Part shown: piece by piece, positions 17,946 to 51,766 of the stretch
Numbering within the stretch: the stretch's first letter is position 1
Layout of the letters: each line of letters opens with the position of its first letter
Assembly (NCBI GenBank): GCA_947570695.1
Contig: CANOVB010000009.1
Coordinates: forward strand, 7,658-71,657
DNA: 64,000 nt
Source of the DNA: an uncultured Clostridium sp.
Lineage (GTDB): Bacteria > Bacillota > Clostridia > TANB77 > CAG-508
Direction: 5' to 3'
Translations under genes and position numbers: made by a program
Notes under the pieces: model-generated
The model's database searches: none
Told to the model about the DNA's origin: nothing
What the model saw: only the letters and a program-made list of their open reading frames with translations

Positions 17946-18044
17946 ATATGTACTCATTTAATTATTTTAAAAAGATAGAAATATTTAGAGTTATACAATA
18001 AGAAATTATACAGTAGTACAACTCTAAACATCTCTATTTTAATT

Positions 18045-20965: not shown

Positions 20966-21667
20966 TTACCATTCTATCTCTTCAACTGGTTTTGGACTTT
21001 CATTTATTTTTATATTTTCTGCAGTTCCATTTTTAAAATATATTACTTTATCAGCCATTGGAGCTATTGCTGTATTATGAGTAATTATAATTACAGTTAT
21101 TTTTTCTTTTCTACAAGTATCCTGTAGCAATTTTAAAATTTGTTTTCCTGTATTATAATCTAATGCTCCTGTTGGTTCATCACATAATAATAGCTTAGGA
21201 TTTTTTGCTATTGCCCTTGCTATCGCTACTCTTTGTTGTTCTCCACCAGAAAGTTGTGATGGAAAATTTTTCATTCTATCTTTTAATCCAACTTTTTCTA
21301 AAACCTCTTTTGGATCTAGAGAATCTTTACAAATTTGAGTTGCAAGTTCAACATTTTCTACTGATGTTAAGTTTTGAACTAAATTATAAAACTGAAATAC
21401 AAATCCTATATCTTCTCTTCTATATTTTATAAGCTCTTTATTTTTAAGTTCATCTATTCTTTTTCCATCAACTATTACTTTTCCATTTGTTACAGTGTCC
21501 ATTCCACCTAAAATATTAAGTGACGTTGTTTTTCCAGCGCCACTTGGACCTACTATAACTACTAATTCCCCTTTTTCAATCTTGAAGTTAGTATTATTCA
21601 AAGCTTTAATACTAACTTCACCCATTTTGTATTCTTTTTCAACATTTTCGAATTCTATATAAGACAT
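20966..21667 (-). CDS. ABC-type ATPase (MacB/LolD/FtsE-like) with no permease gene nearby
   Basis: Walker [10 protein letters not shown], signature [15 protein letters not shown], Walker [12 protein letters not shown]. Its ATG overlaps the upstream stop (TAATG). Confidence 0.9.
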
Positions 21668-22641
21668 TATTCTGTTACATTTACCTCCATACTAAATTTT
21701 GAAATACTATTATCTATTTCTGCTTTTCTTGTTGCTTCATCAACATTTTCTACTCCAGAATATTTCTCCATAACTCTTATTGATGAAAATACTATACTTC
21801 TTGAATTATCTCCGTCATCAATAAATTTTTTAAATGTAAAGTTTTCAGTTGTACTTTCTCCTGGCGCTAATACTATTGGATAAAGTTCAGAACGACTTCT
21901 AGTTTCGTTCGGTAATGCTAATACAATTTCATCTATTTCACTTTTATCAGATATTACAACTGTATAATTTGATCTATTTGTAAATTTTACTTTATATTTT
22001 TCAGTACTATAATTTACAACCTTATCTATTACATCTATCTTTAAATATTCATTTTCTGAAATACTTTTTACATCTGTATGATATACATAATCTCCTACAT
22101 TCATCTGCATATCACCATTTTTATTCTCATAAAAAGCAATTTTTTCTGAAGTAAAAGAATATGTTGAATTCGTTAGTCCTGTTGATAATAAATCATCTGT
22201 ATACTTTATTTCATAAATATATATTTTCGTATTTCCATATTTAACATTAGAATAGTCTTGAATAGAATACTTTTTAGGACTTGGCATTTTTACTAGTACA
22301 TGTTCCATAAACTCCTCAACTCTATTATTAAAAGCATAACTTCTGCAATCTTCTGAAAGCATATTAAATGCTTTTTGATAATTACCTTCATTACAATATC
22401 CTATATATTCTTTTATTACATCTTCAATAGAATCTTGCATATATCTAGGTGTAGAAGAACTTGAATCTATAACAGAAGCATGTGGCTCATATGTTGTTGT
22501 TGGCTTTGGAACTACTACTCTATTTCTTAAGTATATATTAATAAAAAATATTATTGCCCATACTACAAAGATTACAAATATTATTTTTCTATACTTTCTA
22601 ATAAAATGTATAAATTTTAGTCTTAATGTTGTAAAATCCAT
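21667..22641 (-). CDS. Membrane-anchored extracytoplasmic protein, unknown function (VirB8/TcpC-like role is a hypothesis only)
   Basis: 324 aa with an N-terminal TM helix (IIFVIFVVWAIIFFINIYL). The segment IKEYIGYCNEGNYQKAFNMLSEDC parallels a segment of the neighbouring 174-aa protein. Confidence 0.6.
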   Translation of the reverse strand: MDFTTLRLKFIHFIRKYRKIIFVIFVVWAIIFFINIYLRNRVVVPKPTTTYEPHASVIDSSSSTPRYMQDSIEDVIKEYIGYCNEGNYQKAFNMLSEDCRSYAFNNRVEEFMEHVLVKMPSPKKYSIQDYSNVKYGNTKIYIYEIKYTDDLLSTGLTNSTYSFTSEKIAFYENKNGDMQMNVGDYVYHTDVKSISENEYLKIDVIDKVVNYSTEKYKVKFTNRSNYTVVISDKSEIDEIVLALPNETRSRSELYPIVLAPGESTTENFTFKKFIDDGDNSRSIVFSSIRVMEKYSGVENVDEATRKAEIDNSISKFSMEVNVTE

Positions 22642-22665
22642 ATCCTTTTTCCTTTCAAATTATAT

Positions 22666-23190
22666 TTATATAACTGAGAATGACATTACATAATCATTCA
22701 AATCATTTTCTTGTACTACAAAATTCATTTCTTTTCCAGAATTTTTACTTGCAAGTGGATTTGATAAAGTTACCCATAATACATAAACTTCGCCATTTCT
22801 TTCAAAGTTTGTAAATTCCGCAGAAATAGTAGTTGGGAATTTAGATTTCGCATATTCTTCAAAACTGCTTAAAGTTGGAAAATAGTTTTCTTTAAAATTA
22901 TCATAAAGTAATTCGTAAGCTTTTTCATAATCTTTCTTTTCTAAATTTTTAATAAAATTTCCAACATAACGTTCCATTCTATCTCTTTCACTTAAAGTTG
23001 ATAAATCATTTACTTCCATCTTATCTACTTTTTCTTGAACTATACTAGAAATTTCTTCATCTGTCATATTAGAAATATTAACTTCTCCTTCTTTTTTACT
23101 ATTTAAAACAAGAGCTATTATGATTATAATAACTACTACAGTAGCAAACCCTATTAAAACTTTTTTATTACTTTTTCTGTAATTTTGCAT
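22666..23190 (-). CDS. Membrane-anchored extracytoplasmic protein, unknown function (single-domain relative of the 324-aa neighbour)
   Basis: 174 aa with an N-terminal TM helix. Segment FIKNLEKKDYEKAYELLYDNFKENYF. Confidence 0.6.
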   Translation of the reverse strand: MQNYRKSNKKVLIGFATVVVIIIIIALVLNSKKEGEVNISNMTDEEISSIVQEKVDKMEVNDLSTLSERDRMERYVGNFIKNLEKKDYEKAYELLYDNFKENYFPTLSSFEEYAKSKFPTTISAEFTNFERNGEVYVLWVTLSNPLASKNSGKEMNFVVQENDLNDYVMSFSVI

Positions 23191-23217: not shown

Positions 23218-25869
23218 TTACTTTTGCTTTTTCTTTTGATTTCCTAATGATTCTACTACTTTTGCTGTTCTAGATGTTAACAGGTCAGCATCTCCATTAT
23301 ACTTACCATGTTCTTCAAATATACTTGACATTGCAAGATTTAATTGTAAAGATTTATAATCAGATGCAGCTTCTTCTAATCCTTTAAATTCATCACCTTT
23401 AGGTGTTTCATGAATTCCTATAGAATGTTTTATTTGTCTTTGAACTGTCTGACTGCTTAAATCAAAGCCTCTACCATTTTGAACTTCATCTGTTATGTTT
23501 TCTGTAATCCATTCTGCTGTAGTTTCTATTTGAGTTCTTTCAGCTTCAGTTAGTCCTTCACCATCTTTGCTCTTAGCTTTCATTTGTGAAAGTAGAGACA
23601 TTATTTCCATTTTCTTTGATTGTAATTCTGCTGAACTTGCTCCTCTGCTTCTATCTCTTATTCTTTGTTTTACATTTCTTTGTGCGTAAAATTCTGATAA
23701 TTCTTTCTTTTTACTAGCTACAGATTCTTCATATTTTTCTCTACTAGAATAAATGCTTTTTAATCTTCCATCATATTCTTCGTCTAATGCTTTAGCTAAT
23801 TGTTTTCCGCCTTCTGATTCTTCTCGTTTTGCTACTGCTTGTGTTCTTAAAGCTTCTGCTCTAGCTTTTTTAGCATCTGCTTCATCTTGTAATTTCTTAG
23901 CTTTTGCCATTGATTCTAATGCTTGCTCTTCTGCTTCTTCTCCTACTAATCCTCCCGCTGCTTGTGAAGTTGCAAACATGCTATCAGCATTTTGTCTTTC
24001 TTTAGATGCTTCTGCTTCTAATTCTTCCGCGTCTTTTTCTAATTTATCAGCATCACTATCTAGTGTATCAGCTTCTGTATCTAAAACTTTTGACTCATCC
24101 ATCAATTTTCCAAATTCTGTTTGTTTTTCTGTATCTGCTAATGCTTTTTCATCTTTAGCAATATCTTCTGCCAATTCTTTTTCTTCTTTTTTATCTTGTT
24201 CATAATTTAAATCTGACAAATTCTTAGTTGATTTTCCTGTACTAGAGTTAAGTAATTCAGCACTACCTTTTGCAACACCTTTTCCTAAACCAAAAGCCTC
24301 TAATGCACCCATTCCTCCAGCCATATATGCCATTGATCCTGCCATAAGTCCAACTGCACTCGAAGTACTAAATCTACGGTTTGCCATTGCTTTTCCAAAC
24401 CCTGAGTTTCTATATTTATGTGATAATGTTCTAGCACCATTAATTCCTCGTTTTAATCCTCTTGCTGGCATAGAATTTCCTAACTTATCGCCTAAAGCTT
24501 TAGTTCCTTTTTCAAGTTTCTGCTCTAAATTTCCTGCACCTTTTCCTAAATTACCAAGTCCTCTTTTTAGTGCATTATTGCTATTTACCCAATTATTATT
24601 TGCCCACATCTTTCCATCATGTGAAAATGCTTTTGAAACACTTCCAGCCTTATTTTTAGCAAAATTTATTCCTTTTCTTGTTGTTGTACCTATTTTTTGA
24701 GCATTCTTTATTGCCATCATACCAACTGCCATACCACCTACAAATGATGTTGAGCTATTATCATCTTGGAATCCAAATATTTGTCTAATAATTTTTTCTC
24801 CGTCACTTACAAACTTTATACATAATATTGCTAAAACTCCGTTTACAAGCTGATTATATTCAGGAGTGCTAAGTATAGCTGGTAATCCTGCTGAAACAAT
24901 CGTATTTTTAACTATTAATGAAAATGCTGTTCTTATAAATGCTATATATAATATACAATGAAATGGTTGTATTAAAATCGTATATACAAATTCTTTTAGC
25001 CATGTTCCCAAAGCTTGAGCTTTTCCATCTCCCATTTTGTCTATTGAATATGTTAATGATATAAGTGGCGAAATTATTATTAAAAATCCAACTTTTATCA
25101 TACGACTTATGTATGCTACTAAAAATGCTAAAGATTGGAAAACAATAGCACAAAAAACAAGGACTGAAATAATACTTGGAATACCAACTCCAATTACTGC
25201 ATTTACACCTATTCCTGTTATTAAACTTCCTATACTATCTTCTACTGATTTATCAGTAAGTACTGATGCTAATGCATTTACTATTGCATTATTACAATAT
25301 ATTGTAAAAATCGCTATATACTGTAATACAAATATTAATAATAAACTACAGCACCAATCTACTAACATTTTTTTATATTTTGCTTTTTCTTCTGCAACAG
25401 AAGATATTGCCATTCTAATTCCTACATATACTAGTATAACCAGCAATATAGCACTAGCTACTAATCTCATAACATAAAACCATTGTGCTACAGCAGTTCT
25501 AATTGTATATGCTATTGATGTGGTTGGAACTCCTGTTATATCGAAAAAATTTACATCTAATAATTTATATTTATTAAAGAAAATATCAAATGGTGTTATT
25601 ATTGAGAATGGTCCAGAATATCCATAATTTACTCCATCTGCTTCAGCTAAATTTGCTACTATATTGTCCAAAACAAATGCAAGTCCAGTTGCAAGTAATC
25701 TCTTATCCCAATATACTATAGATACCACTCCTCCTGCTAAACTACTTACTGTATTTAAAGATTCTTCTGATATTATATTGGCATTACTAATATTGCTTGA
25801 ACATACAAATTCAAACACTGTTATAATTAATATGAAAATTATTAAAATCTTACATATAATTTTTTTCAT
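23218..25869 (-). CDS. VirB6-like polytopic membrane protein paralog (883 aa) with a ~510-aa Ala/Lys/Glu-rich tail
   Basis: Signal peptide, then a shared core: PFDIFFNKYKLLDVNFFDI, WFYVMRLVASAILLVILVYVGIRMAISSVAEEKAKYKKMLVDW, ISPLISLTYSIDKMGDGKAQALGTWLKEFVYTILIQPFHC. The core ends near IIRQIFGFQDD (about aa 370). Confidence 0.7.
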   Translation of the reverse strand: MKKIICKILIIFILIITVFEFVCSSNISNANIISEESLNTVSSLAGGVVSIVYWDKRLLATGLAFVLDNIVANLAEADGVNYGYSGPFSIITPFDIFFNKYKLLDVNFFDITGVPTTSIAYTIRTAVAQWFYVMRLVASAILLVILVYVGIRMAISSVAEEKAKYKKMLVDWCCSLLLIFVLQYIAIFTIYCNNAIVNALASVLTDKSVEDSIGSLITGIGVNAVIGVGIPSIISVLVFCAIVFQSLAFLVAYISRMIKVGFLIIISPLISLTYSIDKMGDGKAQALGTWLKEFVYTILIQPFHCILYIAFIRTAFSLIVKNTIVSAGLPAILSTPEYNQLVNGVLAILCIKFVSDGEKIIRQIFGFQDDNSSTSFVGGMAVGMMAIKNAQKIGTTTRKGINFAKNKAGSVSKAFSHDGKMWANNNWVNSNNALKRGLGNLGKGAGNLEQKLEKGTKALGDKLGNSMPARGLKRGINGARTLSHKYRNSGFGKAMANRRFSTSSAVGLMAGSMAYMAGGMGALEAFGLGKGVAKGSAELLNSSTGKSTKNLSDLNYEQDKKEEKELAEDIAKDEKALADTEKQTEFGKLMDESKVLDTEADTLDSDADKLEKDAEELEAEASKERQNADSMFATSQAAGGLVGEEAEEQALESMAKAKKLQDEADAKKARAEALRTQAVAKREESEGGKQLAKALDEEYDGRLKSIYSSREKYEESVASKKKELSEFYAQRNVKQRIRDRSRGASSAELQSKKMEIMSLLSQMKAKSKDGEGLTEAERTQIETTAEWITENITDEVQNGRGFDLSSQTVQRQIKHSIGIHETPKGDEFKGLEEAASDYKSLQLNLAMSSIFEEHGKYNGDADLLTSRTAKVVESLGNQKKKQK

Positions 25870-25905
25870 TTTCTTTCTCCCAACATAATATATTTATATC
25901 ATCTT

Positions 25906-28857
25906 TTAAGGTGTTGTTCCACCATTTTGTGAATTATTTCCTTTACTTTTTAAAGGTTCTAATATTTCCATTTTGCTTTTTAATACATCTACTTTTGCTT
26001 CTTGTTTTATTCTAGCTGATTTTGCTTGCGTATATAATTCTACAGCAGATTTTTTATGTTCCATATCTGCTACTGTAGCTGCATAACTTTGAGAAGTTTC
26101 CGCAGTTCTTGCTTGTGATAATGTTGATACTTGAATATCAAGTTCTTCTTGCAGGCTTTCAGCTGCTTCGTCTAATTTTCTTTGGTATTTTCCATGAACT
26201 AAATTACTATTAAAGTCTAATTCCCTACTAGCATCTTTCATAGCTTTTGCTATTATTATTCCTTGCTCTACTTTCAATCTTCTAATTGTTTCTTCTATTT
26301 TTTGTCTTGCTTCAACCTCAGTTTGTGAATTAATTCTGTCACTTTCTTGTTTTATTCTTTCATCAAATGTATCTATTAAAACTCTTACTTGTTCATCTGT
26401 TAATCTACGCATTTCAGCATTTATTGTTGTATCTTTATCATCATAGCTTTCTATAGTATCATCTGCTTTTGCATCTACACTAGTATTGATTATCTCTTCA
26501 TATTTTTTATCTCTAGCAGGAGTAAATTCTTCTACTATGTTATTTATAATAGTATTTGTATCCATTTCTGCATTTTCTGCCTGTTTTAATTGATATTGTA
26601 TACTAACTTTATTTGAAAATCCTTGTATTGCATCTTGTACAGTTCTTTCTCTTCCTTGATGATCTTTATCTTCTATACTAAAAGCACCTAGTCCTTCATA
26701 ATTGCCTTGTCCAGAATATAAATCTTTAAGTTCTTCTGCAATTTTATCTGGAGCATTTATAGGGCTTGTTCTTAATATATCCATAGCATTAGTTCTAAAG
26801 GATTGAAATTCTTTTCCTCTTCCCATTTTATCCATTGCTGCTTTTAATTCTTTTAGCACTTTATCTAATTCTTGTGTTGCTTTCCCATCTGTTTCACCAA
26901 TCTTTAAATAATCATATTTATCTGCATTTTGTGATACTTCTGTTAATATAGCTCTTGCATCAGCTGAACTTTCTAATCCCATATCTTTTAAATTATTGCT
27001 AATTCCACTTGAAATAGTTTTTCCACTACTTCTTAAAAATTCTTGTGTACCTTTAAAAGTTGCTGCTCCAACACCTATAGCTGTTGCTATATTTCCACCT
27101 GTACCATAAATTCCTGAACCAACCATAAGACCAATTCCAGCTGTTACAGAATGTTTTGCAAAATCACTTGCTTCTCTATAAATATGAGATTGTCTTAAGG
27201 TAGATTTCAATTTATCTACTTTTCCTTTTGCTCCCTTAATAGCCTTTCCTCTAACTGTATGGTCTTTTGCAACTTTTAATCTTGCCATTGATTCTGCTTC
27301 TTTTTCAGAAATTGTACCATTACTTGATTGTAATATTCTTTCTTTTTCTGCATTAACTTCTGATGAGAATGTTTCTTTTTTAGCTTGCTCTACTGCTTTT
27401 TCTCTTGAAATTTTATTTCCTGTTAGTCTACCTGAATATACTAAACTATCAGCTCTTCTTTGAATTTCAGCCTCTGATGCTACTCTAAAATCATTACGTT
27501 GATTAAAAATTGATTGAAATGCTCCACTTCTTTGCGCAATTTGGTCTGCTCTTTTATTATTTAAATCAATTCTTACTTCTTCTTTTCTTTCTGCAAATGA
27601 TTTGCTCAAGCCATCTTTATTTGTAAGCATTGAACCTATAGCTAAAGCCTCAACTTTCGCATTTTTTCCAAGTGAAGCTACACTTTTACCTAAATTTTTA
27701 GCTCCACTTACAGCTTTTCTTGTATTTTTTCCTATATTTTTTGCTTGATTTAATGCTACTGCTGAAGCCGCCATACCTGCTGCAACAGAAGTTTTACTAT
27801 TATCATCTCTAAATGCAAATATTTTTCTAATAATTTTTTCAGCTTCTTTTACAAATCTAATCATTAATATTGCAATTATTGATCTAGCTAATTTTTGAGT
27901 TGCATCTGATGGTTGTGTTAATAACCCAAATGCCATATCAACTAAACACATATATATAACACAATGAAATGGCTGGATAAGTACTGTAAATACAAATTCT
28001 TTTAACCAAGCATTTAAAGCTTGTGCTTTTCCATCTCCCATTTTATCTATCGAATATGTTAATGTAATTAATGGTGAAATTATTATTAAAAATGCAATTT
28101 TTAACATACGGCTAAAATATGCAAATACTAATCCCAATGTTTGCCATACAAGCATACAATATATTATTGTTGCTGCTATTGCATTTAAATCTATTAAAGA
28201 AGTTCCTTTCATAAATAATTCTTTATATACTTCTTCTATGTCTTTTGTATTTACTGATGCTTTTAATGCTTCAATTATTCCATTATTACAATTTATTGTA
28301 AATATTACTATGTACTGCATAAGAAATATTAATAATATGCTTACAAGCCAATTTACTAACATTTTTTTATACTCTGCTTTTTCTTCGGCAAGTGTTGAAA
28401 TTGCCATTCTTATACCAACATATATAAATATAACTAATAGTATTGCTGCAGCTAATGTTCTCATTACATAATACCAACCCGCAACACTTGATCTCATAGT
28501 ATTAATAAAATTTGTTTCTGTTCCTATATCAAAAAAGTTTATATCGAATAATTTTATATTATTGAAAAATATATCTAAAGGCGTAACTGCAGAAGTATCA
28601 ATAACTGCACTAGTTGTTCCTTCAGTATATGCTATTAATGAAGTAAATAATTTCATTACATATCCTGCAAATAATGCTGATATTCTTAAAGGCCATGTTA
28701 AAAGCCCTATAACTCCACCCAAGATATTAGTAAATATATCTGTAATATCATCTAAACTATAACTTCCAAAAGCAAAAGCAGAATTTGAAATTAAAAAATT
28801 GTTTAATATTAAAATTATTAAAATTGCTATTACTAATTTCTTAAGTACTCTTCTCAC
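25906..28857 (-). CDS. VirB6-like polytopic membrane protein paralog (983 aa) with a long tail
   Basis: Same core: PLDIFFNNIKLFDINFFDI, WYYVMRTLAAAILLVIFIYVGIRMAISTLAEEKAEYKKMLVNW, ISPLITLTYSIDKMGDGKAQALNAWLKEFVFTVLIQPFHC. The tail contains GSGIYGTGGNIAT and coiled-coil-like segments. Confidence 0.7.
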   Translation of the reverse strand: MRRVLKKLVIAILIILILNNFLISNSAFAFGSYSLDDITDIFTNILGGVIGLLTWPLRISALFAGYVMKLFTSLIAYTEGTTSAVIDTSAVTPLDIFFNNIKLFDINFFDIGTETNFINTMRSSVAGWYYVMRTLAAAILLVIFIYVGIRMAISTLAEEKAEYKKMLVNWLVSILLIFLMQYIVIFTINCNNGIIEALKASVNTKDIEEVYKELFMKGTSLIDLNAIAATIIYCMLVWQTLGLVFAYFSRMLKIAFLIIISPLITLTYSIDKMGDGKAQALNAWLKEFVFTVLIQPFHCVIYMCLVDMAFGLLTQPSDATQKLARSIIAILMIRFVKEAEKIIRKIFAFRDDNSKTSVAAGMAASAVALNQAKNIGKNTRKAVSGAKNLGKSVASLGKNAKVEALAIGSMLTNKDGLSKSFAERKEEVRIDLNNKRADQIAQRSGAFQSIFNQRNDFRVASEAEIQRRADSLVYSGRLTGNKISREKAVEQAKKETFSSEVNAEKERILQSSNGTISEKEAESMARLKVAKDHTVRGKAIKGAKGKVDKLKSTLRQSHIYREASDFAKHSVTAGIGLMVGSGIYGTGGNIATAIGVGAATFKGTQEFLRSSGKTISSGISNNLKDMGLESSADARAILTEVSQNADKYDYLKIGETDGKATQELDKVLKELKAAMDKMGRGKEFQSFRTNAMDILRTSPINAPDKIAEELKDLYSGQGNYEGLGAFSIEDKDHQGRERTVQDAIQGFSNKVSIQYQLKQAENAEMDTNTIINNIVEEFTPARDKKYEEIINTSVDAKADDTIESYDDKDTTINAEMRRLTDEQVRVLIDTFDERIKQESDRINSQTEVEARQKIEETIRRLKVEQGIIIAKAMKDASRELDFNSNLVHGKYQRKLDEAAESLQEELDIQVSTLSQARTAETSQSYAATVADMEHKKSAVELYTQAKSARIKQEAKVDVLKSKMEILEPLKSKGNNSQNGGTTP

Positions 28858-28888
28858 AGTTTCACCTTCTTTCTTTTAAATCTAATTT

Positions 28889-31630: not shown

Positions 31631-31647
31631 AGCTCTCTCTCTTTCTT

Positions 31648-34600
31648 TTAATTTCTTAGTCCTTGTATAAATCTATCTACATCATCTATTGGACCTTTTA
31701 CATCTAAAACTCTTTCAGCTTTTTTCATTGCTTTTTCTTTTTTATCTAAACTCATTTCTTTATCTTGTGCACTTATTAATTGTGATAATCTATCTTGTAC
31801 TTCTTCTCTTCTTAATTCAGGTTGTGTTACTTTTAAATGCTCTTCATAGGCATCAACATTTAGTCTTGCTCTATCTGAAAGTAAAGCTTCGATTTCTTGT
31901 GATGATTTTCCACTTGCTTGTAATCTTCTTCTCTCACTTTCTAAGCTAGTAATAAGCTCTTCTTGTTTTTTGCCTGAATTTTTGAAAGTTTCAACTGCTA
32001 TTTTATCACCATAATAAGCTACTGCTGCTGAACTTTTAGCTTTTACTTTTCCTGTATATCCTATATTTCCTGATTTTAATTCAAGTTCAACTCTAGCAAA
32101 ATTATTAATATCTTCTAATTCTTTTCTCATTAATAATAACTCTAAAACATCAGAAGATTCCTGCTCTGTTAAAGTTTCATTTTCTACTGTTGCAGTACCA
32201 CTTTGTACAGCATCTATTGCTTCTTCTACAGTTCCATCTGTTAATCCATCTATATTAAGTTCTAATACTTGTTGAAGTTTTTTCTTTCTCTTTGCTATTC
32301 TCGCTGCTGCTATTTTTTTATCTTTACTTGTTACTGCTTCTATAGATGGTCTTTTTATATCATTATTTTTTAAAGATAATAAATATGTTTGTATTGATTG
32401 TTCAAATTGTGATTTATCTAAATCAGCAAGCTTAATAGCTCCATCTCTACTAGAATTTGCTGATTGTGATCCATCTTTAGAAGTATTTGGTCTTCTTGTT
32501 CCATCTGGCAATATATCTGCTCTTCTTGTTCCGTCCTGATTTGGATTTAATGAACCAGTTCTTAGTCCTTCTAACTTTGATAAAACATCTTCTGTTTTTA
32601 CTTGTGAATAATCTGGTTTTTGTCCTGCAACAGATTCCACTGCTTGTTGAATTGCAACTTTATCTGAATTTTCTAAAAACTCTAATATACTTGTATTTCT
32701 TGCTTTGCTTTGAGATTCTATACTACTTGTTTTTCTTTTTAATATATCAACAATTCCAGCTTTGCCTTTATCGAAAATTTCTTCGACTTTTTCATCCTTT
32801 TGTATAATTCCTGCTGCTTCTAATTTGGCTGATAATCTTTTTATAACTTCACTTTGTACTGCTTGACTTTCTGTATCAAGACCTTTAGATGAATCTAGCA
32901 TTTCTTTTATGATTGCATCTAATTCTCTATTTACTAATTCTTGATTCTTACGATCTGAAAGCTTACTATCTGTTCCATCTGCTAATGTTAATACATATTC
33001 TCCTTCTGCAATATCTGTTTTTGATGATTCATCATCTTCTTCTATCTTCGTAGTAGTTCCAGTTTTTGGATCATATATTAAACCTTGTTCTGCATATAAT
33101 GCTATCATTACTTTATTATATTCTTCCAAAGAATCTGCTTTCTTTACCCACTCTCTTCTAATCTCGTCATACTCATATCCCATTTCGGCATATACTTGTT
33201 TTTCATATTCAGCTTGTTTTCTTTCTTGTGCAGCTATAGTTTCTCCTTGAGCGACTCCCATTTGAAGATTTGCAGAATCTTTTAAGAATGTTTGTTGCAT
33301 AGTTCTTGCTTGCCTTACAAAATGTTCATTTAATTTTTTTTCATTTACAGATATACCAGAATGTTTTTTGAAAAATCTTGCTGCAGCTCCTGCTGTTCCT
33401 GCTATTGCAACTGGAGCAAAAGCTACTCCTGCGCCAGATACTACTCCTAGAGTTCCAGCTGTAACAGCTGCTATTCCACCATTTCTTAAATCTTCTAATC
33501 TATCAGTTGTCCAACCAAGTTTTGCATCCTTTTTAAAATCTGCTTTTAAACCTTGATATAGTTTTGGATGATTTTGCCTTACATTATCTACAACAGCACT
33601 ATCAAGCTCTTTTTGACTTCTTTTAAATGCTTCTTTTTGAAGATTTTTAATAGCTGGAGTTGAAAATCTTGAAAAATGATATCTTCCTTTATATCCTTTA
33701 CTATTTGCTGATTTTTTAAAAGTTTTACTTGTTAATGCTGTTCCCGCTCCTAAAAGAGCCATACCCATTTGTGGATGTGCAACTAATGTACCCATTCCAA
33801 CAAACATTGATGCTATTCCTCCAAATCCATTTCTTATTGGATTTAATACTTGTTCTTTAAATACTTTTTTATCTGCATCTGTAAATCCTAATAAATTTGA
33901 TGAACTAAGTCTATTATACATTCCATTTTTATCAGATATTCTCTGACCAGTTTTAGAATCTTTATGAGTTGTTCCTAAAACTCCTATTCTTAATTTATTA
34001 AGATTTGCTAAACTAATTTGAACTCTTCCACTGTCTGTTCTATTAAATCTAAATTGATTATCTATATCTAATAAATTATCTATATGTCCTGCAACAATAT
34101 CTTTTGTTTCAGGAATTCCTATACTTTCTTTATAAGCACCATAATCAGCCATTGCTGTTTCATATCTTTTTTTAGCTTCAGCATATTCCTCAGATCCTGC
34201 TGTTGCTGATTTCATATCACTTAAAGCAAAGGCAACTTTTGCTTTTAAAGATTCTTCACCTTTTGTTAATAATTCAACTGCACTTTTTTCACTTACCATT
34301 GGAGAAGATGTAACTTGTGAATATTTAGGTTTTCTTCTTAACACTGCTTGTTCTGCTAAGCTTCTTCTTGCTTCATATTGTTCATCAGATTCATTATCTT
34401 TACGTGCATATCCTTGTCCGTTTTTATCCATTTCTTTTTCAACATCTTTTTCAAATGCCTCTTCTGGAGTATTTTTCATATCATTAAGTACTGATTGAAC
34501 ACTTTTTATTCCAGCACTCGCTCCTGCAATTCCCCCTGCTGCTGCAATTTTTCCTATACCTTTTACAGCTCCTGCAAATGGTGTGTTCATCATTGTTTTA

Positions 34601-36081
34601 GCTAAAGGTTTAGCACCCATATACATACCTCTTGCAGTCTGTAATGTTTGACGCATTTTTTCTGCACTTCCTGCTTCTGCTGTATGACCTAATAAACTAT
34701 CTCCATCTCCAAATTTAAATATCTTTCTAAATAAAGCCTCAGCTTTTAAACTATAATTCATAAATATTAATGCAACTATCATTCCTGCAACTGAATGTAA
34801 TGACAATACTAGAGCTGTAGAAATAAATATAGCATAAATTAATGCATGTACTATTTGAATAATTACGTTCATAATATATTCTGAAAGCCATGTTTTCATT
34901 GTTGCAGATTTACCACTTAATACTTTTTGAAGAGCATAAGTAAGTCCAACTGCCGGTCCCATAAGTGTTAAAACTATTAATGTTAAATATCTTTTTAAAT
35001 AAACTAATGTATATCTAATTGCAAAATATACTAAAGTCATATACATTATCATACCTGATAATCCATTTGATAATTTTGCATCATAAGCTCTTGTTCTAAT
35101 AGCTTCATAAACATCTATTTCTAGTTCACTATCAGTTTTCTCTATTGGTGTATCTTTATCAGATATTTGTTTTAAAGTAACTGTATTTACAGTATCAGCA
35201 GATTCACTTATTATATCTACCATTTTTTCATTTGTATATATTACAAAAATCATTATGTAATGTATAAAAAACAAAATAATTACACCAACAAGCCAATCTA
35301 CTAACATTCTTTTATAGACTGCCTTTTCTGAGGCGATTGTTGATATAGCCATTTTTATACCAATTATAATAAGAGCAACTAGCATTGCAGCTATTGCAAT
35401 TAATCTTATTATGTAATACCACATAGAAACTAATTTTTTAATTTGTAAAACTATCGGTGGATTATTTTCTTCATCTATACTTAATGCTGTTATATATGCT
35501 CTGCAGCCACTACAATTTCCATTACAATCACAACTACACCCTGTTTCTGATGCACATTCTTCAGCATTTTTTCCACATTTTTCACATTTATATTTTTGCC
35601 CTGTTCCACTAACAGTTTTATCATACTCTAAATCGAAAAAATTTATATTAAAAGCTGGCACTCTATTATAAACAATAGCTTGAACAGTTAAATTATTTGA
35701 AGAATCTGTAATTGAAGTTAAATCAGTTGAATTGATACCTTTATCGATTTCTTCACCTGCCATACTAACACCTGAAGTTGTTTCTAATGCCCAAGTTAAT
35801 AGTTTTTCAATAAGAGCTGTCCAACCTACAAATACCATTCTTATACCCATGGTTATAATACCTAATAACCAATCTGCAATATCACCTATACTATTTAAAA
35901 GCCAAGCAAAAATACCATCTTTTATAGTATATGTACCTTTTGTTGTTCCTGAATAGTAATAATCACCATCTTTTAAATCAAGTTTTGCATAAGAAGCAGG
36001 CGTAGCACAAAATGTTATTAAGATAGATATTGTTATTATTATTAAAATAATTTTTTCACAAATCTCTTTTAATAGTGCCAT
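31648..36081 (-). CDS. Divergent giant VirB6-like paralog (1477 aa) with a Cys-rich loop insertion and a ~1000-aa tail
   Basis: Recognisable but diverged core: PAFNINFFDL, WYYIIRLIAIAAMLVALIIIGIKMAISTIASEKAVYKRMLVDW, GPAVGLTYALQKVLSGKSATMKTWLSEYIMNVIIQIVHA. Unique insertion CEKCGKNAEECASETGCSCDCNGNCSGC. Confidence 0.65.
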   Translation of the reverse strand: MALLKEICEKIILIIITISILITFCATPASYAKLDLKDGDYYYSGTTKGTYTIKDGIFAWLLNSIGDIADWLLGIITMGIRMVFVGWTALIEKLLTWALETTSGVSMAGEEIDKGINSTDLTSITDSSNNLTVQAIVYNRVPAFNINFFDLEYDKTVSGTGQKYKCEKCGKNAEECASETGCSCDCNGNCSGCRAYITALSIDEENNPPIVLQIKKLVSMWYYIIRLIAIAAMLVALIIIGIKMAISTIASEKAVYKRMLVDWLVGVIILFFIHYIMIFVIYTNEKMVDIISESADTVNTVTLKQISDKDTPIEKTDSELEIDVYEAIRTRAYDAKLSNGLSGMIMYMTLVYFAIRYTLVYLKRYLTLIVLTLMGPAVGLTYALQKVLSGKSATMKTWLSEYIMNVIIQIVHALIYAIFISTALVLSLHSVAGMIVALIFMNYSLKAEALFRKIFKFGDGDSLLGHTAEAGSAEKMRQTLQTARGMYMGAKPLAKTMMNTPFAGAVKGIGKIAAAGGIAGASAGIKSVQSVLNDMKNTPEEAFEKDVEKEMDKNGQGYARKDNESDEQYEARRSLAEQAVLRRKPKYSQVTSSPMVSEKSAVELLTKGEESLKAKVAFALSDMKSATAGSEEYAEAKKRYETAMADYGAYKESIGIPETKDIVAGHIDNLLDIDNQFRFNRTDSGRVQISLANLNKLRIGVLGTTHKDSKTGQRISDKNGMYNRLSSSNLLGFTDADKKVFKEQVLNPIRNGFGGIASMFVGMGTLVAHPQMGMALLGAGTALTSKTFKKSANSKGYKGRYHFSRFSTPAIKNLQKEAFKRSQKELDSAVVDNVRQNHPKLYQGLKADFKKDAKLGWTTDRLEDLRNGGIAAVTAGTLGVVSGAGVAFAPVAIAGTAGAAARFFKKHSGISVNEKKLNEHFVRQARTMQQTFLKDSANLQMGVAQGETIAAQERKQAEYEKQVYAEMGYEYDEIRREWVKKADSLEEYNKVMIALYAEQGLIYDPKTGTTTKIEEDDESSKTDIAEGEYVLTLADGTDSKLSDRKNQELVNRELDAIIKEMLDSSKGLDTESQAVQSEVIKRLSAKLEAAGIIQKDEKVEEIFDKGKAGIVDILKRKTSSIESQSKARNTSILEFLENSDKVAIQQAVESVAGQKPDYSQVKTEDVLSKLEGLRTGSLNPNQDGTRRADILPDGTRRPNTSKDGSQSANSSRDGAIKLADLDKSQFEQSIQTYLLSLKNNDIKRPSIEAVTSKDKKIAAARIAKRKKKLQQVLELNIDGLTDGTVEEAIDAVQSGTATVENETLTEQESSDVLELLLMRKELEDINNFARVELELKSGNIGYTGKVKAKSSAAVAYYGDKIAVETFKNSGKKQEELITSLESERRRLQASGKSSQEIEALLSDRARLNVDAYEEHLKVTQPELRREEVQDRLSQLISAQDKEMSLDKKEKAMKKAERVLDVKGPIDDVDRFIQGLRN

Positions 36082-36093
36082 CTTTTTTCCTTT

Positions 36094-37629
36094 CTAATAT
36101 TGAAGCATTATTTGTTTATCATCATATTTCAATATTCCATTTTTAAAACTCTTAAAATCATAATCTTCTGTACCTTCTTCAAATCTAGTTACTACTCCAT
36201 TTTCTAAATCATAACTATATATTCCTTTTCCTTTTTTAGAATAAAGGAATGTATCATTATTTATCCATAAATATGAATCTATACTATCATTTAATTCTCT
36301 ATTAGGATTTCCATTGACTGTAGATATGAACTTCATACTGTATATATTTCCTGCATTGTCTAAATCTGGATATATATCATATCTTATACTTTCGCCTATA
36401 AGTTCCAAAGTATCACTATCCAAAGTTTCTCTATATTCTTTACATTTTGCTTTTAAAGATATAGTATTTTTTATTCTTCTTTTTTCTGTTTCAAAAATAG
36501 AATCTAATTGAAGTCTTGCAACAAAGTTTGTATTCTCTAGATAACGGCTAACTTTAGACAAATTACTCTTAATATTATTATACACCAAAATTCCGTTTGT
36601 GTCATCATAATTTATCTTAATTTCTATGCCTTTTAGCGGATATGATATAAAAACAGAACTTGATGTATAATCATATTCACTATAGTCAGGCCAGATATAT
36701 GTAAGTTCATTCATAAAGTCTAATAAATCTTTTTTTTCATTTATGAAATCATCTGCTAATTTGAAAAAATCATCTGCATCTGTATCTGTATTTCTGTATA
36801 CTGATATTTCATTTTCAGAAAAGAAAACATATATTTCTTCTCCTTTATACCCTAGTATTTTTAGCTCTTCATCTTCAAAACTTGGTTTACCTAAAACATC
36901 TTCTACAGTTTTTAAATCAACTCCAGGAAATAAACTCTCAATAACATTTCCAACATATTTGTTATCGAAAACTATATTATAAATTTTATTATTAATTGTT
37001 CTTACTTTAATTCCTTCATCAAAATATATATAATATTCATCAAAAATGCTTTCTCTAGTTCCAAAATTTGCCGAATTCCAGTTATTATTGATACTTTCCC
37101 ATAAAACTCCTGATGTTATTAAAAAATCTTTTTTTGGAATTTCGACATATTGCTTCATACTAATTTGAGAATCCATATAAATAAAATAATCTTCAATATC
37201 ATTTATTATTATAGAAGCTATTTTTCCATTCTGGCAAATAACTTTTATAGTAATATCATTTTTCTTATCAATCATTTTAAAATTGCTATATCGTATAACT
37301 TTTGCAACATCACCTAATAAATCATTATAATATTTCTCATTACTATTGTCTTTTTCATCATAAGGAAGAACTGAAAATTCTACAGAGATATCTAATGAGT
37401 AATTTTCATCTAAACTCTGTTTTTCAGAAATGTATTTTGATTTGTAATATTCTACAACATCTTTTACTGTTTTTAAATTGTCATAACTAAGTTCTGGAAT
37501 CTCAACATTTTTTTGTACCTTACTTAAAAGTAAGCAAAGACATAACAATATAAAGATCATAACAAATAAAACTATTAAAATTATATTATAGTTTTTTTTG
37601 CTTTGATCTTTATATTGTATATTTTTCAT
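36094..37629 (-). CDS. Membrane-anchored extracytoplasmic protein, paralog A (511 aa)
   Basis: N-terminal TM helix. Shares blocks with the 392-aa neighbour: LGYKGEEIYVFFSENEISVY and ISYPLKGIEIKINYDDTNGILVYNN. Has an extra ~110-aa C-terminal extension. Confidence 0.65.
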   Translation of the reverse strand: MKNIQYKDQSKKNYNIILIVLFVMIFILLCLCLLLSKVQKNVEIPELSYDNLKTVKDVVEYYKSKYISEKQSLDENYSLDISVEFSVLPYDEKDNSNEKYYNDLLGDVAKVIRYSNFKMIDKKNDITIKVICQNGKIASIIINDIEDYFIYMDSQISMKQYVEIPKKDFLITSGVLWESINNNWNSANFGTRESIFDEYYIYFDEGIKVRTINNKIYNIVFDNKYVGNVIESLFPGVDLKTVEDVLGKPSFEDEELKILGYKGEEIYVFFSENEISVYRNTDTDADDFFKLADDFINEKKDLLDFMNELTYIWPDYSEYDYTSSSVFISYPLKGIEIKINYDDTNGILVYNNIKSNLSKVSRYLENTNFVARLQLDSIFETEKRRIKNTISLKAKCKEYRETLDSDTLELIGESIRYDIYPDLDNAGNIYSMKFISTVNGNPNRELNDSIDSYLWINNDTFLYSKKGKGIYSYDLENGVVTRFEEGTEDYDFKSFKNGILKYDDKQIMLQY

Positions 37630-37659
37630 TTATGTTTTCTTCCTTTCCTTAGTACGAAT

Positions 37660-38838
37660 CTATCTAGCTTCTCTTCTCTCTATTTCATATTTTTCTATCA
37701 AATCCTTATCACTTTCAAAGTTTATTAATCCATTTTTTACAAACTCTTTTGTTTTATCTGTAAAGTAGTAATTATTATATAATGTTATTCCATTTGGATT
37801 ATTATCTAATATATCAATCTCAATTCCCCTAGTTGGGAACACTATATGTGCTTTTTTTATATCTGCATCATATTCAAAAGACTCTAAATCATAAGATAGC
37901 ATTTGTTTTGAAAGTTCTGTTATAAAACTATCTAAGTCTTTATCTTTTAAATATTTATCTAATAAATTTTCAAACTTAGTATTTTTTCTATAAGAATATC
38001 CATATACAGAAACTTCATCACTATAGAAAAAATAATATAAATCATTACTTCTATAGCCTAGATATTTATCATTTAAACTCCCAAAAGTGTTATCATTATG
38101 TAGTTCATATATTTTTGATAAAGAAGTATCCATATTTACATCTGTAAGAATATCATATTCATAATCTTCTGAAAAAATTATATTCATAACAGACTTATTT
38201 GGAGCAAGTTTTATTCTTATTATTCCATCATAGTAACTTGTATAACCATCATCTAACTCTTTTCCCTCATCTAAGTATTCTTTGATTGATGAAATAAACA
38301 TTTGGTTTGACACTAATCTTTCTAAATATCCATTTGAAACATGTAAACCTGATGGTTGTACAATCTCTGATTTTTCAACTGTTATATAGCTTTTTCCATC
38401 AGTTTCATCATAAAAGTTTTTTATATTATTTATTACTATTTCATGTTCTTTAGCTTCTTGATTATAAACAGCATGTATCTCAATATTTTTTTCTTCATCA
38501 ATAACATAAAAGCTTAAATTCTCAAAAAAAGAAGTCAAGTCTTCTATTAATGCGTATAAAAATTTTTTATTGCTTTTTCCATTTTCATCATATAAATCTT
38601 TATCTAATTTAGCATATATTTTTGTTCCATCTTGTTTTAAAAATTCAGAATTATGTTTTTTTATCACATCTGCTACAGTTTGTGGTATAGTTGTTTGAAT
38701 TACTATATTATTAGAATTTTGATTTTTTTCCTCTGCTCTAATTATTTTTTGCATAAAAATAATTAAACATAACAAACAGAAGAATAATAATATTAGAGAA
38801 ATTAAAACTATTTTTGATACAGCTTTCTTTTCTTTCAT
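37660..38838 (-). CDS. Membrane-anchored extracytoplasmic protein, paralog B (392 aa)
   Basis: N-terminal TM helix. Blocks LGYRSNDLYYFFYSDEVSVY and IVFPTRGIEIDILDNNPNGITLYNN match the 511-aa neighbour. Confidence 0.65.
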   Translation of the reverse strand: MKEKKAVSKIVLISLILLFFCLLCLIIFMQKIIRAEEKNQNSNNIVIQTTIPQTVADVIKKHNSEFLKQDGTKIYAKLDKDLYDENGKSNKKFLYALIEDLTSFFENLSFYVIDEEKNIEIHAVYNQEAKEHEIVINNIKNFYDETDGKSYITVEKSEIVQPSGLHVSNGYLERLVSNQMFISSIKEYLDEGKELDDGYTSYYDGIIRIKLAPNKSVMNIIFSEDYEYDILTDVNMDTSLSKIYELHNDNTFGSLNDKYLGYRSNDLYYFFYSDEVSVYGYSYRKNTKFENLLDKYLKDKDLDSFITELSKQMLSYDLESFEYDADIKKAHIVFPTRGIEIDILDNNPNGITLYNNYYFTDKTKEFVKNGLINFESDKDLIEKYEIERREAR

Positions 38839-38841
38839 TTA

Positions 38842-40083
38842 TTATCCTTCTTTCTTCATAAATTTATTTACACCTCTTAATGTTAATACACCTTTCATAT
38901 CAAATACTACTTTAACCATTCTCTCAACTGTACCCATTGCCATTAACATTGCTAGGGCCACTAATGGTGAACTTGCTGCAATAGAATTTGCTGTTAACAC
39001 AAATATTAAATAAATAAGTGCATGAAGTGGTTGAATTAACACATTTACTATAATCTCTTTTAGCCATATTGAAAAAGCTTGTGCTTTACCATCTCCTACT
39101 TTATCTATAGAATATGTTATTGTAATCAATGGTGATATTATAATTAAAAATCCTACCATTAAAAGTCTTTTCATGTATGTCCATAAAAATTTCATTTCCA
39201 TAAATAATAAACACCAATAAATAATAGACCACATTGTTAAATCTAAACCAGATTTTGAAAGTATTGAACACCATGCCTCATTACGTATAACTTCTTCAAA
39301 TATTTCATAAGTAGATCCTGTCCCTGAAACAGTCTCTCCTAATAGTTGACATCTAAGATCATAAAAAATTCCTGTAATGCGTTCACCAAAAATTGTAATT
39401 GCACTTATGATATAAACCATAAGGAACATTATTACTATACTTTCTATCCAGCTAACAAGCATTTTCTTATATTTTGCTTGTTCAGATGCTACGGTAGAAA
39501 TTGCCATTCTAATTCCTATATATATTAAAACTAATAATCCAATAGCCAAAGCAATAATTCTACAAATATAGTAAACACCGGTTATACCCTTTTTTATCTC
39601 GATATTACTTGCATTTTTTTCAATTTCTGTATCTCCAACTTGATATGTACCTTCTTCAATATCAAAATAATTTATATTAAACAATGGTACTCTATTAAAT
39701 ACACATCTATCTATAGTAAACCAATATTGTAATTCTCCATTTTCTGTTCCATACGTAAGTTGGGACATTATAATATCTACCTGAGCAGCAAAGAAAATAT
39801 TAAATAATCTTGCTAAAAGTCCTATAACTGTACCAACTATTGATGCACCAAAACTCAAAGCGGTAGTTGCTACTTTGGTAGCACTATCTTGAGTTTGGGA
39901 TACAGTTCCTTCTTGAGTAATTTCCGCTGCAACTCCATCGCTTACAGCAGCTGGTTGATTTAAAACGCCAGAACTTTCTGAATCATCTGGTGAGGTTCCA
40001 GATGGTTCTGCATAAACTACACTAGCACTTATGAAATTAAGAATTATTGAAACCACTAATAAGCAGCTTATAATTTTTTTCAT
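38842..40083 (-). CDS. VirB6-like polytopic membrane protein, tail-less core paralog (413 aa)
   Basis: Signal peptide (ASVVYAEP), then VPLFNINYFDI, VYYICRIIALAIGLLVLIYIGIRMAISTVASEQAKYKKMLVSW, ISPLITITYSIDKVGDGKAQAFSIWLKEIIVNVLIQPLHA. It ends where the other paralogs start their tails. It lies directly downstream of the VirB4 gene. Confidence 0.7.
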   Translation of the reverse strand: MKKIISCLLVVSIILNFISASVVYAEPSGTSPDDSESSGVLNQPAAVSDGVAAEITQEGTVSQTQDSATKVATTALSFGASIVGTVIGLLARLFNIFFAAQVDIIMSQLTYGTENGELQYWFTIDRCVFNRVPLFNINYFDIEEGTYQVGDTEIEKNASNIEIKKGITGVYYICRIIALAIGLLVLIYIGIRMAISTVASEQAKYKKMLVSWIESIVIMFLMVYIISAITIFGERITGIFYDLRCQLLGETVSGTGSTYEIFEEVIRNEAWCSILSKSGLDLTMWSIIYWCLLFMEMKFLWTYMKRLLMVGFLIIISPLITITYSIDKVGDGKAQAFSIWLKEIIVNVLIQPLHALIYLIFVLTANSIAASSPLVALAMLMAMGTVERMVKVVFDMKGVLTLRGVNKFMKKEG

Positions 40084-51733: not shown

Positions 51734-51766
51734 GTTATTCTCCTAAAACTATATTTAATAATTGTG

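Follow-up and report, generated by a model that had tools for sequence, protein, structure and literature searches.

In the rvh system of the Rickettsiales, three to five enlarged RvhB6 paralogs are encoded in tandem and VirB2 is duplicated (PMC7648143 and general knowledge of the field). The Patescibacteria carry a chromosomal T4SS with a FATA-type VirB4, a TrsD-like protein, PrgI and 2-11 divergent PF18895 pilins, without a linked relaxase, and most of their VirB6 homologues were matched by the profile of VirB6 (MPF-T), not by that of PrgH (PMC12102498). Chromosomal T4SSs of this group are also described by Wang et al. 2023, as far as that work is reported in PMC12857230. In monoderm conjugation, extended VirB6 analogues are already known as well, namely pLS20 gene 49 and TcpH (PMC8557374, PMC12857230), and the same two papers give the families of pLS20 gene 49 and ICE CDS16 their VirB6-like label. 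Long tails are thus not confined to rvh, with which a preliminary description of the present DNA had compared the paralogs.

The cluster described here is chromosomal in TANB77/CAG-508 gut Clostridia and was studied in a window of 64 kb, meaning the whole stretch of DNA that was analysed. With rvh it shares the tandem multiplication of VirB6-role and pilin genes, the large hydrophilic extensions, and a chromosomal location, probably without a role in conjugation, in a host-associated lineage with a small genome. However, rvh belongs to the diderm P-type systems and has a TrbL-domain VirB6, VirB7-11 and VirD4, whereas this one is monoderm and FATA-type with none of these seen. The two are alike by analogy and not by common descent. 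Read in this way, the proliferation of VirB6-like and VirB2-like genes proposed earlier for a monoderm is real and old, with seven pilins, five paralogs and orthologs across loci. The architecture of FATA-type VirB4, TrsD-like protein, PrgI and VirB2 array, chromosomal and with no linked relaxase, is the same as in the Patescibacteria, but these are another phylum than the Clostridia, and a multi-paralog or extended VirB6 set has not been reported there. The paralogs also resemble pLS20 gene 49 and Mycoplasma ICE CDS16, which are polytopic and encoded beside VirB4/VirB3-like genes; gene 49 is moreover long (974 aa), with N-terminal TMs, a hydrophilic tail like that of the extended paralogs, and an NFFD-like motif before the first TM pair. 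Those proteins are single copies on mobile elements with a T4CP and a relaxase, whereas here there are five, on a chromosome, with neither nearby. What is new is the pilin hairpin in every VirB6-like core.

The gene cluster and its five paralogs

The operon runs from the seven pilin genes through PrgI, the TrsD-like gene, VirB4, p413, two anchored proteins, p1477, p913 and p983 to p883 (Table 1). Between the pilin array and the ABC ATPase gene, intergenic spacing is 0-36 nt (12 nt in the case of VirB4 and p413, which follows downstream), while gaps between pilin genes reach about 180 nt, and no minus-strand terminator-like site was found between 20.4 and 48.4 kb of the window. A defence island lies upstream of the cluster.

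Table 1. Features of the cluster, with positions counted from the first letter of the window
Feature	Position	Strand	Basis or description
Two small anchored proteins (174, 324 aa) directly 3' of p883, then ABC ATPase	21667..23190	-	ORFs
p883, extended paralog, 9xx type	23218..25869	-	tail from about aa 372
VirB2-like hairpin in p883	25288-25491	-	equivalent of p413 hairpin
p983, extended paralog, 9xx type	25906..28857	-	tail from about aa 362
VirB2-like hairpin in p983	28282-28485	-	equivalent of p413 hairpin
p913, extended paralog, 9xx type	28889..31630	-	tail from about aa 366
VirB2-like hairpin in p913	31043-31246	-	equivalent of p413 hairpin
p1477, giant paralog	31648..36081	-	core to about aa 465; 1012-aa Ala/Lys/Glu-rich tail
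VirB2-like hairpin in p1477	35227-35430	-	equivalent of p413 hairpin
Two paralogous N-terminally anchored proteins (392, 511 aa), p413-p1477 interval	36094..38838	-	26% identity to each other
p413, bare VirB6-like core	38842..40083	-	signal peptide, predicted external N-domain with NFFD motif, pilin-like hairpin, C-module, no tail
VirB2-like hairpin in p413	39382..39585	-	hhalign, PF18895
VirB4-like ATPase, 664 aa, monoderm (MPF-FATA) kind	40096..42090	-	Pfam P-loop_TraG, AAA_10, DUF87
TrsD-like protein, 420 aa, N-terminal TM, resembles N-terminal part of VirB4	42112..43374	-	NCBIfam
PrgI/VirB3-like small membrane protein, 111 aa	43375..43710	-	PF12666
Seven VirB2-like pilin genes (133, 125, 124, 132, 129, 141, 128 aa)	43725..46923	-	PF18895, alignment

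The VirB4-like ATPase matches NCBIfam conju_CD1110 (3.8e-61) and VirB4_plasma (1.2e-58). The TrsD-like protein matches positions 64-244 of VirB4_plasma (E 2e-5) and TrsD (E 2e-3), and its orthologs carry PF26593 (TraC-like). The PrgI/VirB3-like protein stays just under the PF12666 cutoff of 27 with 25.2 bits (E 2.4e-5); the 133-aa pilin exceeds that of PF18895 with 31.6 bits, and the seven-pilin array has a counterpart in related genomes. The 392- and 511-aa anchored proteins, which share 26% identity (E 3e-21) and keep their position in relatives, have no family matches in Pfam or NCBIfam.

The five ORFs of 413, 1477, 913, 983 and 883 aa lie where they had first been placed, all on the minus strand. 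That they have a core in common (370-470 aa) is borne out by BLASTP, in which 10 of 10 pairs are significant (26-48% identity, E 9e-39 to 3e-180), and the motifs quoted earlier were recovered: the NFFD block, the GIRMAIS hairpin, TYSIDKxGDGKAQA...LIQPxH and RKIFxF, with p413 ending about 20 residues past the position equivalent to the last. The four stretches of about 80 nt singled out before as conserved have a mean column identity of 91%, and the remaining core DNA 60-82%. All five paralogs have pilin-style signal peptides, a predicted external N-domain of 100-190 aa (in p1477 with a Cys-rich insert, aa 163-196) and 5-6 hydrophobic helices, and are therefore polytopic. The most conserved is p413, which has 931 homologs, the best 120 of them 395-458 aa long and without Pfam matches. 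On the sequence evidence, the five genes are old paralogs.

Relationship of the core to VirB6 and to the VirB2 pilin

The VirB6-like identity first proposed for the core stands in part. It is favoured by the slot in the gene cluster, polytopic proteins being encoded here alongside VirB3 and VirB4, and by monoderm families that bear a VirB6 label. Of 93 diverse family cores, 72 are matched by NF045848 (MMCAP2_0566; best 7e-13), 63 by NF045889 (Mbov_0396, the ICE CDS16 family; best 5e-11) and 12 by NF045890 ("pLS20_p028 family", that of pLS20 gene 49; best 4e-7). These matches are significant, a sign of remote homology, and extend over the hairpin and the C-module, but all are sub-cutoff, the window proteins scoring 12-27 bits where the curated cutoffs are 70-90 bits. 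None of the pLS20 gene-49 and ICE CDS16 families is itself a Pfam TrbL member. The TrbL/VirB6 and PrgH profiles count against the identity: PF04610 matched 0 of 5 window proteins at E<=1 and, among the matches listed, 0 of the 93 family cores, and the positive control, PrgH, does match TrbL (E 1e-6, 29.2 bits). An hhalign comparison of the core with the PrgH family gave a probability of 1.5% (E 0.033), single-sequence comparisons were likewise negative, and there was no hhalign match to TcpH.

Each paralog has a C-module of long helices, which in the AF2 model of p413 (pLDDT 89, pTM 0.84) measure 21-53 residues and make up an elongated helical fold. In Foldseek the top match of two independent models is TrwI/VirB6 with weak scores (E 0.22-0.41, prob 0.44-0.66, TM 0.35-0.43), and five TrwI chains are among the top 9 of the second model, a statistically non-significant fold match. 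The outcome of these structural and profile comparisons, which the preliminary description had named as the check on its proposal, is thus mixed, with TrwI/VirB6 first but non-significant and TrbL, PrgH and TcpH negative. The likeness to TrwI of R388 (PDB 7O3V, 8RT9, 8RTD), weak as its scores are, runs over 260-279 aligned columns, almost the whole of TrwI, and lies in the long helices and an anchoring N-proximal helix pair; the operon role, that of a VirB2 assembly platform, would be equivalent (PMC12857230; bioRxiv 10.64898/2025.12.18.695078). Unlike TrwI and TrbL (PF04610) proteins, including PrgH of pCF10, with which they have no sequence or profile similarity, the paralogs add a signal peptide, a predicted external N-domain and a VirB2-type hairpin.

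In every core, the first pair of membrane helices is homologous to the hairpin of the co-encoded VirB2-like pilins (hhalign of core and pilin profile, probability 95%, E 2e-8), and PF18895 (T4SS_pilin) matches 67 of the 93 family cores (best 3.9e-8). The hairpin consists of two TM helices and a short charged KYKK loop (aa 167-234 in p413). This VirB2-like hairpin, which was missed in the earlier reading, is in profile comparisons the sole robust domain signal in the core. It makes up about 68 aa of proteins of 413-1477 aa, which are not small hairpin-only pilins (about 50-150 aa).

The five paralogs are fairly likely to be inner-membrane subunits in the VirB6 role of a chromosomal monoderm (MPF-FATA) T4SS that is fixed in TANB77/CAG-508 and would serve a VirB2-type pilus or conduit, not conjugation. 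In such a system p413, short, most conserved and adjoining VirB4, would be the platform subunit at the base, with pilin-like hairpins as a first layer for the stacking of the seven pilins, and the four extended paralogs would enter the oligomer beside it or in its place. A bolder version, rather unlikely as it stands, is that the VirB6-role subunit is literally built on the VirB2 pilin hairpin, that the five paralogs form a mixed platform for seven alternative pilins, and that the TANB77 clade, uncultured and associated with immunotherapy, has in this non-conjugative T4SS a core organelle of its lifestyle. If true, a hairpin-based VirB6 role would mean common ancestry of platform and fibre subunit, or pilus growth templated by pilin mimicry, and the cluster would be the third independent proliferation of T4SS subunits in reduced-genome symbionts, after the Rickettsiales and the Patescibacteria.

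One could also take the paralogs for oversized pilin-family subunits, either minor or tip pilins or VirB5-like pilus-base adaptors, that enter the fibre via the hairpin and display the N-domain or tail. T4SS_pilin is the only Pfam signal above noise, the signal peptides of all five are of the pilin style, a VirB5 analogue is not recognisable in the cluster, and the tails evolve rapidly. However, the hairpin covers only a small part of the core; the remainder is a conserved multi-helix module, and the ICE CDS16 and pLS20 gene-49 matches span both. Excluding the paralogs would also leave the cluster without a polytopic candidate for the VirB6 role, and the start of the tails follows the positive-inside rule, which favours a cytoplasmic location, so that this explanation is improbable.

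The tails

The tails measure 512, 548, 622 and 1012 aa, in agreement with the earlier estimates, but they are not mutually dissimilar, as had been thought: those of p913, p983 and p883 form one family and that of p1477 a separate one. Homology between p913 and p983 runs from end to end (37% across about 900 aa, E 3e-180), and the two tails compared by themselves give E 1e-27. The p883 tail has a segment in common with p983 (E 2e-6) and clusters with both. Of the 53 representative homologs of the p983 tail, nearly every one is joined to a core. The suggestion that the tails are interchangeable modules has to be given up, because each of the two conserved families goes with its own type of core and hardly ever occurs detached.

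Tail evolution is about twice as fast as that of the cores (42-48% identity where cores have 70-88%), which would fit surface exposure as well. The tails are probably cytoplasmic, however, because their first 60 residues are net-positive, as seen in 94% of 112 extended members. If the paralogs act in the VirB6 role, the tails would extend into the cytoplasm, contact the membrane again via Gly/Ala-rich segments and, with no coupling protein encoded nearby, act as scaffolds or as docking sites for substrates. Such segments, uncharged, lie at aa 751-785 and 867-901 of p1477 and aa 544-583 of p913; others are at aa 569-601 of p983 and aa 500-523 of p883.

For some extended VirB6 proteins a role as cargo has already been proposed. 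Applied here, the extended paralogs would be cis-encoded cargo, with tails or cleaved fragments that are exported or enter a target membrane via their Gly/Ala-rich stretches. One or two such stretches (uncharged, 24-40 aa) occur per tail, long enough for a membrane hairpin. The fast divergence of the tails would agree with this, and separate effector or T4CP genes are not visible nearby. Against it, nothing in the tails resembles known toxins or effectors in Pfam or NCBIfam, an immunity-like gene is not evident, and the tail families keep their length and order across the lineage, almost never detached, which makes a cargo role very unlikely.

Conservation and genome setting

The series of 413, about 1450 and about 900 aa is found again in 68 other genomes, as syntenic loci in TANB77-type MAGs, one of them a closed 1.8-Mb chromosome. 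Nearly all of these loci allow the three paralog types to be told apart, and most have the 1477-type orthologous group. Gene order is kept across relatives whose identity ranges from 81% to about 30%. The enlarged tandem paralogs, five here, number two to five in relatives as visible within the 10-kb flank.

The window contains SMC, ScpB and ProRS, and the downstream flank is housekeeping. Flanks vary between distant genomes, and no conserved flanking family was found across the 68 loci. The window holds no relaxase, T4CP or integrase, and neither it nor the 68 loci gave VirB8-11 or VirD4-like matches. Within 10 kb of the 68 loci, phmmer found no T4CP, relaxase, VirB1 or VirB8, a screen of limited sensitivity because single query sequences were used and VirB4 was recovered in only 32 loci; an integrase-like ORF appeared in 1 of 68. 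A T4CP or relaxase could be encoded elsewhere in the genome. A tblastn search of 72,556 plasmids and 50,697 phages with p413 gave no match.

It is hardly likely, then, that the genes form an ordinary conjugative element (ICE), or what is left of one, with paralogs serving conjugation. Every recognisable part is conjugation-type machinery, the nearest named families stem from ICEs and plasmids, and the variable flanks and the upstream defence island would suit a mobile element; the lack of transfer genes in the window and around the loci, the housekeeping flank, the stable gene order and the empty plasmid and phage searches all count against it. That the five copies are an artefact of assembly or collapse, for which no supporting point was found, can be dismissed, since the copies are 60-82% identical in DNA outside the short conserved blocks, four independent assemblies have an identical array in the order 1477-913-983-883, p883 recurs letter for letter in many independent assemblies and in 114 indexed blocks of the sequence collection, and an orthologous series exists in 68 genomes.

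The small anchored-protein family downstream of p883 is seen again in 19 loci, also downstream, and the 174- and 324-aa proteins may be members of the operon.

Organization of the locus

The window has a G+C content of ~27%, and its minus strand holds nearly all of the genes. From 46923 down to ~21667, minus-strand genes are tightly packed, with gaps of at most ~180 nt between the pilin genes and of 0-36 nt downstream from the last of them. Counts from the promoter and terminator scans did not exceed those from shuffled sequence, and the scans served solely to show that no minus-strand terminator-like site lies between 20.4 and 48.4 kb. In the same scans, promoter-like sites (11/12 matches) precede three pilin genes (46984, 46392, and 44197), again at counts no higher than in shuffled sequence.

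[quoted passage not shown]
Feature	Position	Strand	Remarks
Defence island	47922-63937	-	Directly upstream of the T4SS cluster; nSTAND3/PDC-S73 protein (1134 aa), Fic-type PDC-S72/SoFic-like protein
AbiLi/AbiLii	60052-61904		In defence island
QatABCD set	55283-59913		Complete; in defence island
DnaQ/RNase T-type 3'-5' exonuclease, 199 aa	47112-47711	-	Immediately 5' of pilin array; pyrophosphatase in this position in 72%-identity relatives
Seven VirB2-like pilin genes, 124-141 aa	43725-46923	-	One exceeds PF18895 cutoff; same array in a related genome
PrgI/VirB3-like protein, 111 aa		-	PF12666, 25.2 bits vs cutoff 27
TrsD-like protein, 420 aa	42112-43374	-	Matches mycoplasma VirB4 N-terminal part and, weakly, TrsD; orthologs with PF26593
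VirB4 ATPase, 664 aa	40096-42090	-	Monoderm type
p413, 413 aa		-	VirB6-like core paralog, after VirB4
Two paralogous anchored proteins, 392 and 511 aa	36094-38838	-	Between p413 and p1477
p1477, p913, p983, p883, in that order		-	VirB6-like paralogs, downstream of anchored pair
Cys-rich insert, p1477 aa 163-196	35494-35595	-	8 Cys in 34 aa
Two small anchored proteins and ABC ATPase (174, 324, 233 aa)		-	Downstream of p883
937-aa ORF	15132-17945	+	No Pfam or NCBIfam match; position kept in near-identical assemblies

Farther downstream the genes are housekeeping ones (amino-acid ABC transporter, tRNA-Met, ScpB, ProRS, SMC), and with the defence island upstream the locus is therefore chromosomal. 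The seven tandem pilins of this Clostridia chromosome are 17-26% identical to the first member of their array. VirB4 is apparently split: of the mycoplasma VirB4 model, positions 64-244 are covered by the 420-aa protein and 281-889 by the 664-aa protein, and the pair is the TrsD plus VirB4 arrangement. The two larger anchored proteins are 26% identical (E 3e-21) and match no family; they could be VirB8-like or wall-spanning parts.

The shared core and its relation to VirB6

The five VirB6-like paralogs, named by their length in amino acids, share a core, as the preliminary description had it: all 10 pairs are significant, with 26-48% identity (E 9e-39 to 3e-180). The motifs it quoted, the end point of p413 (the paralog lacking a tail), and its tail lengths also agree, and its four conserved stretches of ~80 nt have a mean column identity of 91% when aligned. 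The remaining core DNA is only 60-82% identical between copies, and the paralogs are therefore old. That they could be an assembly duplication is excluded by their repeated occurrence in independent assemblies; p883 is indexed with its exact sequence in 114 collection blocks, and the order 1477-913-983-883-174-324-ABC is identical in four independent assemblies.

The Pfam family TrbL/VirB6 was matched by none of the five paralogs and by none of 93 diverse family cores, while the positive control PrgH does match TrbL. The consistent Pfam signal is T4SS_pilin (67/93 cores, best 3.9e-8), which profile-profile comparison maps to core residues 167-234, two TM helices with a KYKK loop. This hairpin is homologous to the co-encoded pilins (probability 95%, E 2e-8), and the core HMM also recovers small pilins in many loci. 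Three NCBIfam models match below cutoff, NF045848 in 72 of the 93 cores (best 7e-13), NF045889 in 63 (best 5e-11), and NF045890 in 12 (best 4e-7), and these consistent though sub-cutoff matches cover the hairpin plus the C-module of long helices. NF045889 is CDS16, a mycoplasma integrative and conjugative element (ICE) protein encoded beside VirB4 and "likely the VirB6-like component" in a 2025 review (PMC12857230). NF045890 is a 974-aa protein following VirD4 in pLS20, a "putative extended-VirB6" according to Val-Calvo et al. (PMC8557374). The latter has no TrbL match either; non-membership of PF04610 is therefore compatible with a VirB6 role.

With hhalign, nothing significant was found between the core profiles and TcpH (pCW3), PrgH alone, or a 24-sequence PrgH family profile, and the alignment with pLS20 gene 49, which pairs the NFFD motif and the hairpin, was non-significant (E 0.006, probability 6%). 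The core profile found no match among PDB sequences, nor did p413 by tblastn in plasmids and phages, and blastn with the VirB4/p413 region matched only short VirB4 stretches of clostridial plasmids. PF19590, a precomputed label on one protein-search match, was discarded when a rescan at E<=1 failed to reproduce it.

With 38 close orthologs, AF2 gave a poor first model (pLDDT 64); a second, from a 114-sequence alignment including paralogs, reached pLDDT 89 and pTM 0.84. Its fold is helical and elongated, with helices of 38, 49, 53, 35, and 21 residues that far exceed what a bilayer needs. The best PDB match of both models in Foldseek is TrwI/VirB6 of R388, with weak statistics (E 0.2-0.4, TM 0.35-0.43); TrwI chains make up five of the top nine matches of the second model, and the gain in pLDDT brought no better significance. 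Role and remote family point to the core as a VirB6 analogue. It is not shown to belong to TrbL/VirB6.

In p1477, the Cys-rich insert occupies part of the presumed external N-domain, after the NFFD motif and before the hairpin; a motif scan found the same stretch with 8-10 Cys in five orthologs. Its cysteines could bind a metal or pair as disulfides, which would be odd for an external segment in an anaerobe.

Tails and paralog types

The tails, the C-terminal extensions of the other four paralogs, are Ala/Lys/Glu-rich and overall nearly neutral, each with one or two Gly/Ala-rich segments, uncharged and 24-40 aa long. They had been described as mutually dissimilar, which does not hold, for p913 and p983 are homologous over their full length, and part of the p883 tail is common to them as well. 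Clustering across 68 genomes gives two tail families of 34 members each, a 9xx-type that includes p913, p983, and p883, and a 1477-type. Against the closest genome, core identity is 70-88% and tail identity 42-48%, and the gap is also present at greater distance. Searched against the full library, the p983 tail matched only 53 representative proteins, nearly all of them 870-990 aa long and aligned from about residue 360-390 onward; the tail therefore stays with its core. Together with the tail clustering and the paralog types, this rules out the idea of the tails as interchangeable modules.

Among 112 extended members, the 60 residues that follow the core contain on average 8.4 Lys+Arg and 3.2 Asp+Glu, and they are net-positive in 94% of these members. 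On the classical VirB6 topology of an external N-terminus and five spans, and by the positive-inside rule, the tail probably starts in the cytoplasm, a placement qualified by the R388 structure, in which hydropathy reportedly misjudges VirB6 topology.

There are 931 homologs of p413; the best 120 have 395-458 aa and no Pfam domain, and among the homologs listed, two carry a source's name, "hypothetical" in both cases. Scanning one genome per species gave 68 loci. All belong to MAGs of uncultured Clostridia from the guts of humans, chickens, rabbits, sheep, and deer; several bear the name Candidatus Scatovivens or Ca. Merdicola, two genera of GTDB order TANB77, family CAG-508 (PMC13106387). The conserved gene order has VirB4 in 64 of the 68 loci, the TrsD-like protein in 60, and PrgI in 56, with no other flanking family common to more than 25. 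Single-linkage clustering of all ORFs fused pilins, cores, and one anchored protein and was not used to define families. By best-hit classification, nearly every locus has a 413-type, a 1477-type, and a 9xx-type paralog, down to ~30% identity, and the bare/giant/medium split is therefore older than the radiation. The three 9xx-type copies p913, p983, and p883 are later duplicates. The window genome has five paralogs, and 2-5 are visible in related loci, where a 10-kb flank limits the count; the match of five copies to a pentameric VirB6 is for this reason only suggestive.

Comparison with known systems and proposed role

No coupling protein, relaxase, or integrase is present within the 64-kb window. 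In the 68 loci, phmmer with PcfC, TcpA, PcfG, TcpM, PrgK, PrgL, and TcpC found no T4CP, relaxase, VirB1, or VirB8, at a limited sensitivity, as the screen recovered VirB4 in just 32 loci. As in Patescibacteria, such genes could be located in another part of the genome. The Patescibacteria share the FATA-type VirB4, TrsD-like protein, PrgI, and divergent PF18895 pilin array, in a chromosomal cluster likewise lacking a linked relaxase. A December 2025 review holds VirB2 arrays to be unique to them among monoderms, and reviews up to late 2025 give monoderm T4SSs one VirB6 analogue each (PMC12857230). The likeness to the Rickettsiales vir homolog (rvh) system drawn earlier survives as an analogy, but rvh has a TrbL-domain VirB6 and is a diderm P-type system. 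The five paralogs have their closest relatives in pLS20 and mycoplasma ICEs, whose extended-VirB6-like proteins are single-copy. No published description of the cluster was found; the paper on a "TANB77 conserved pilin" was set aside, as it concerns a Tad pilus locus.

In the locus, a VirB2 array and a five-fold expansion of VirB6-like genes occur together, both fixed in a Clostridia order. For most Gram-positive conjugative plasmids, a preprint argues that one VirB2-like protein assembles on a VirB6 pentamer, and pilin docking on and growth from such a platform is the model now proposed for Gram-positive systems (bioRxiv 10.64898/2025.12.18.695078). Here, p413 would be the basal platform, its hairpins mimicking pilins and seeding the fibre; the extended paralogs would join or replace it, with their cytoplasmic tails as scaffolds or substrate docks. 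A VirB2 hairpin in a protein with a VirB6 role offers a testable handle on this docking and growth. The order TANB77, for which about 120-130 species are reported (PMC13106387, PMC11680825), is uncultured, with small genomes (one of the 68 loci lies on a closed 1.8-Mb chromosome). Among gut biomarkers it is reportedly the one most consistently tied to checkpoint-blockade response, in a study where a Tad pilus cluster is the only one described for it (PMC11680825). The presence in TANB77 of a second large apparatus, of the surface or secretion kind, therefore bears on host interaction.

Some related loci carry further genes. A 749-aa family with a weak Hydrolase_2 (cell-wall hydrolase) match occurs within the cluster in locus L064 (4700-6946) and 24 others, ~5.7 kb downstream of the core gene in more distant TANB77-type genomes; it is absent from the window and may be a VirB1-like component of those genomes. 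In one locus, L062, a surface adhesin of the thioester-domain/DUF11 kind (1624 aa) is encoded close to the cluster (14691-19562).
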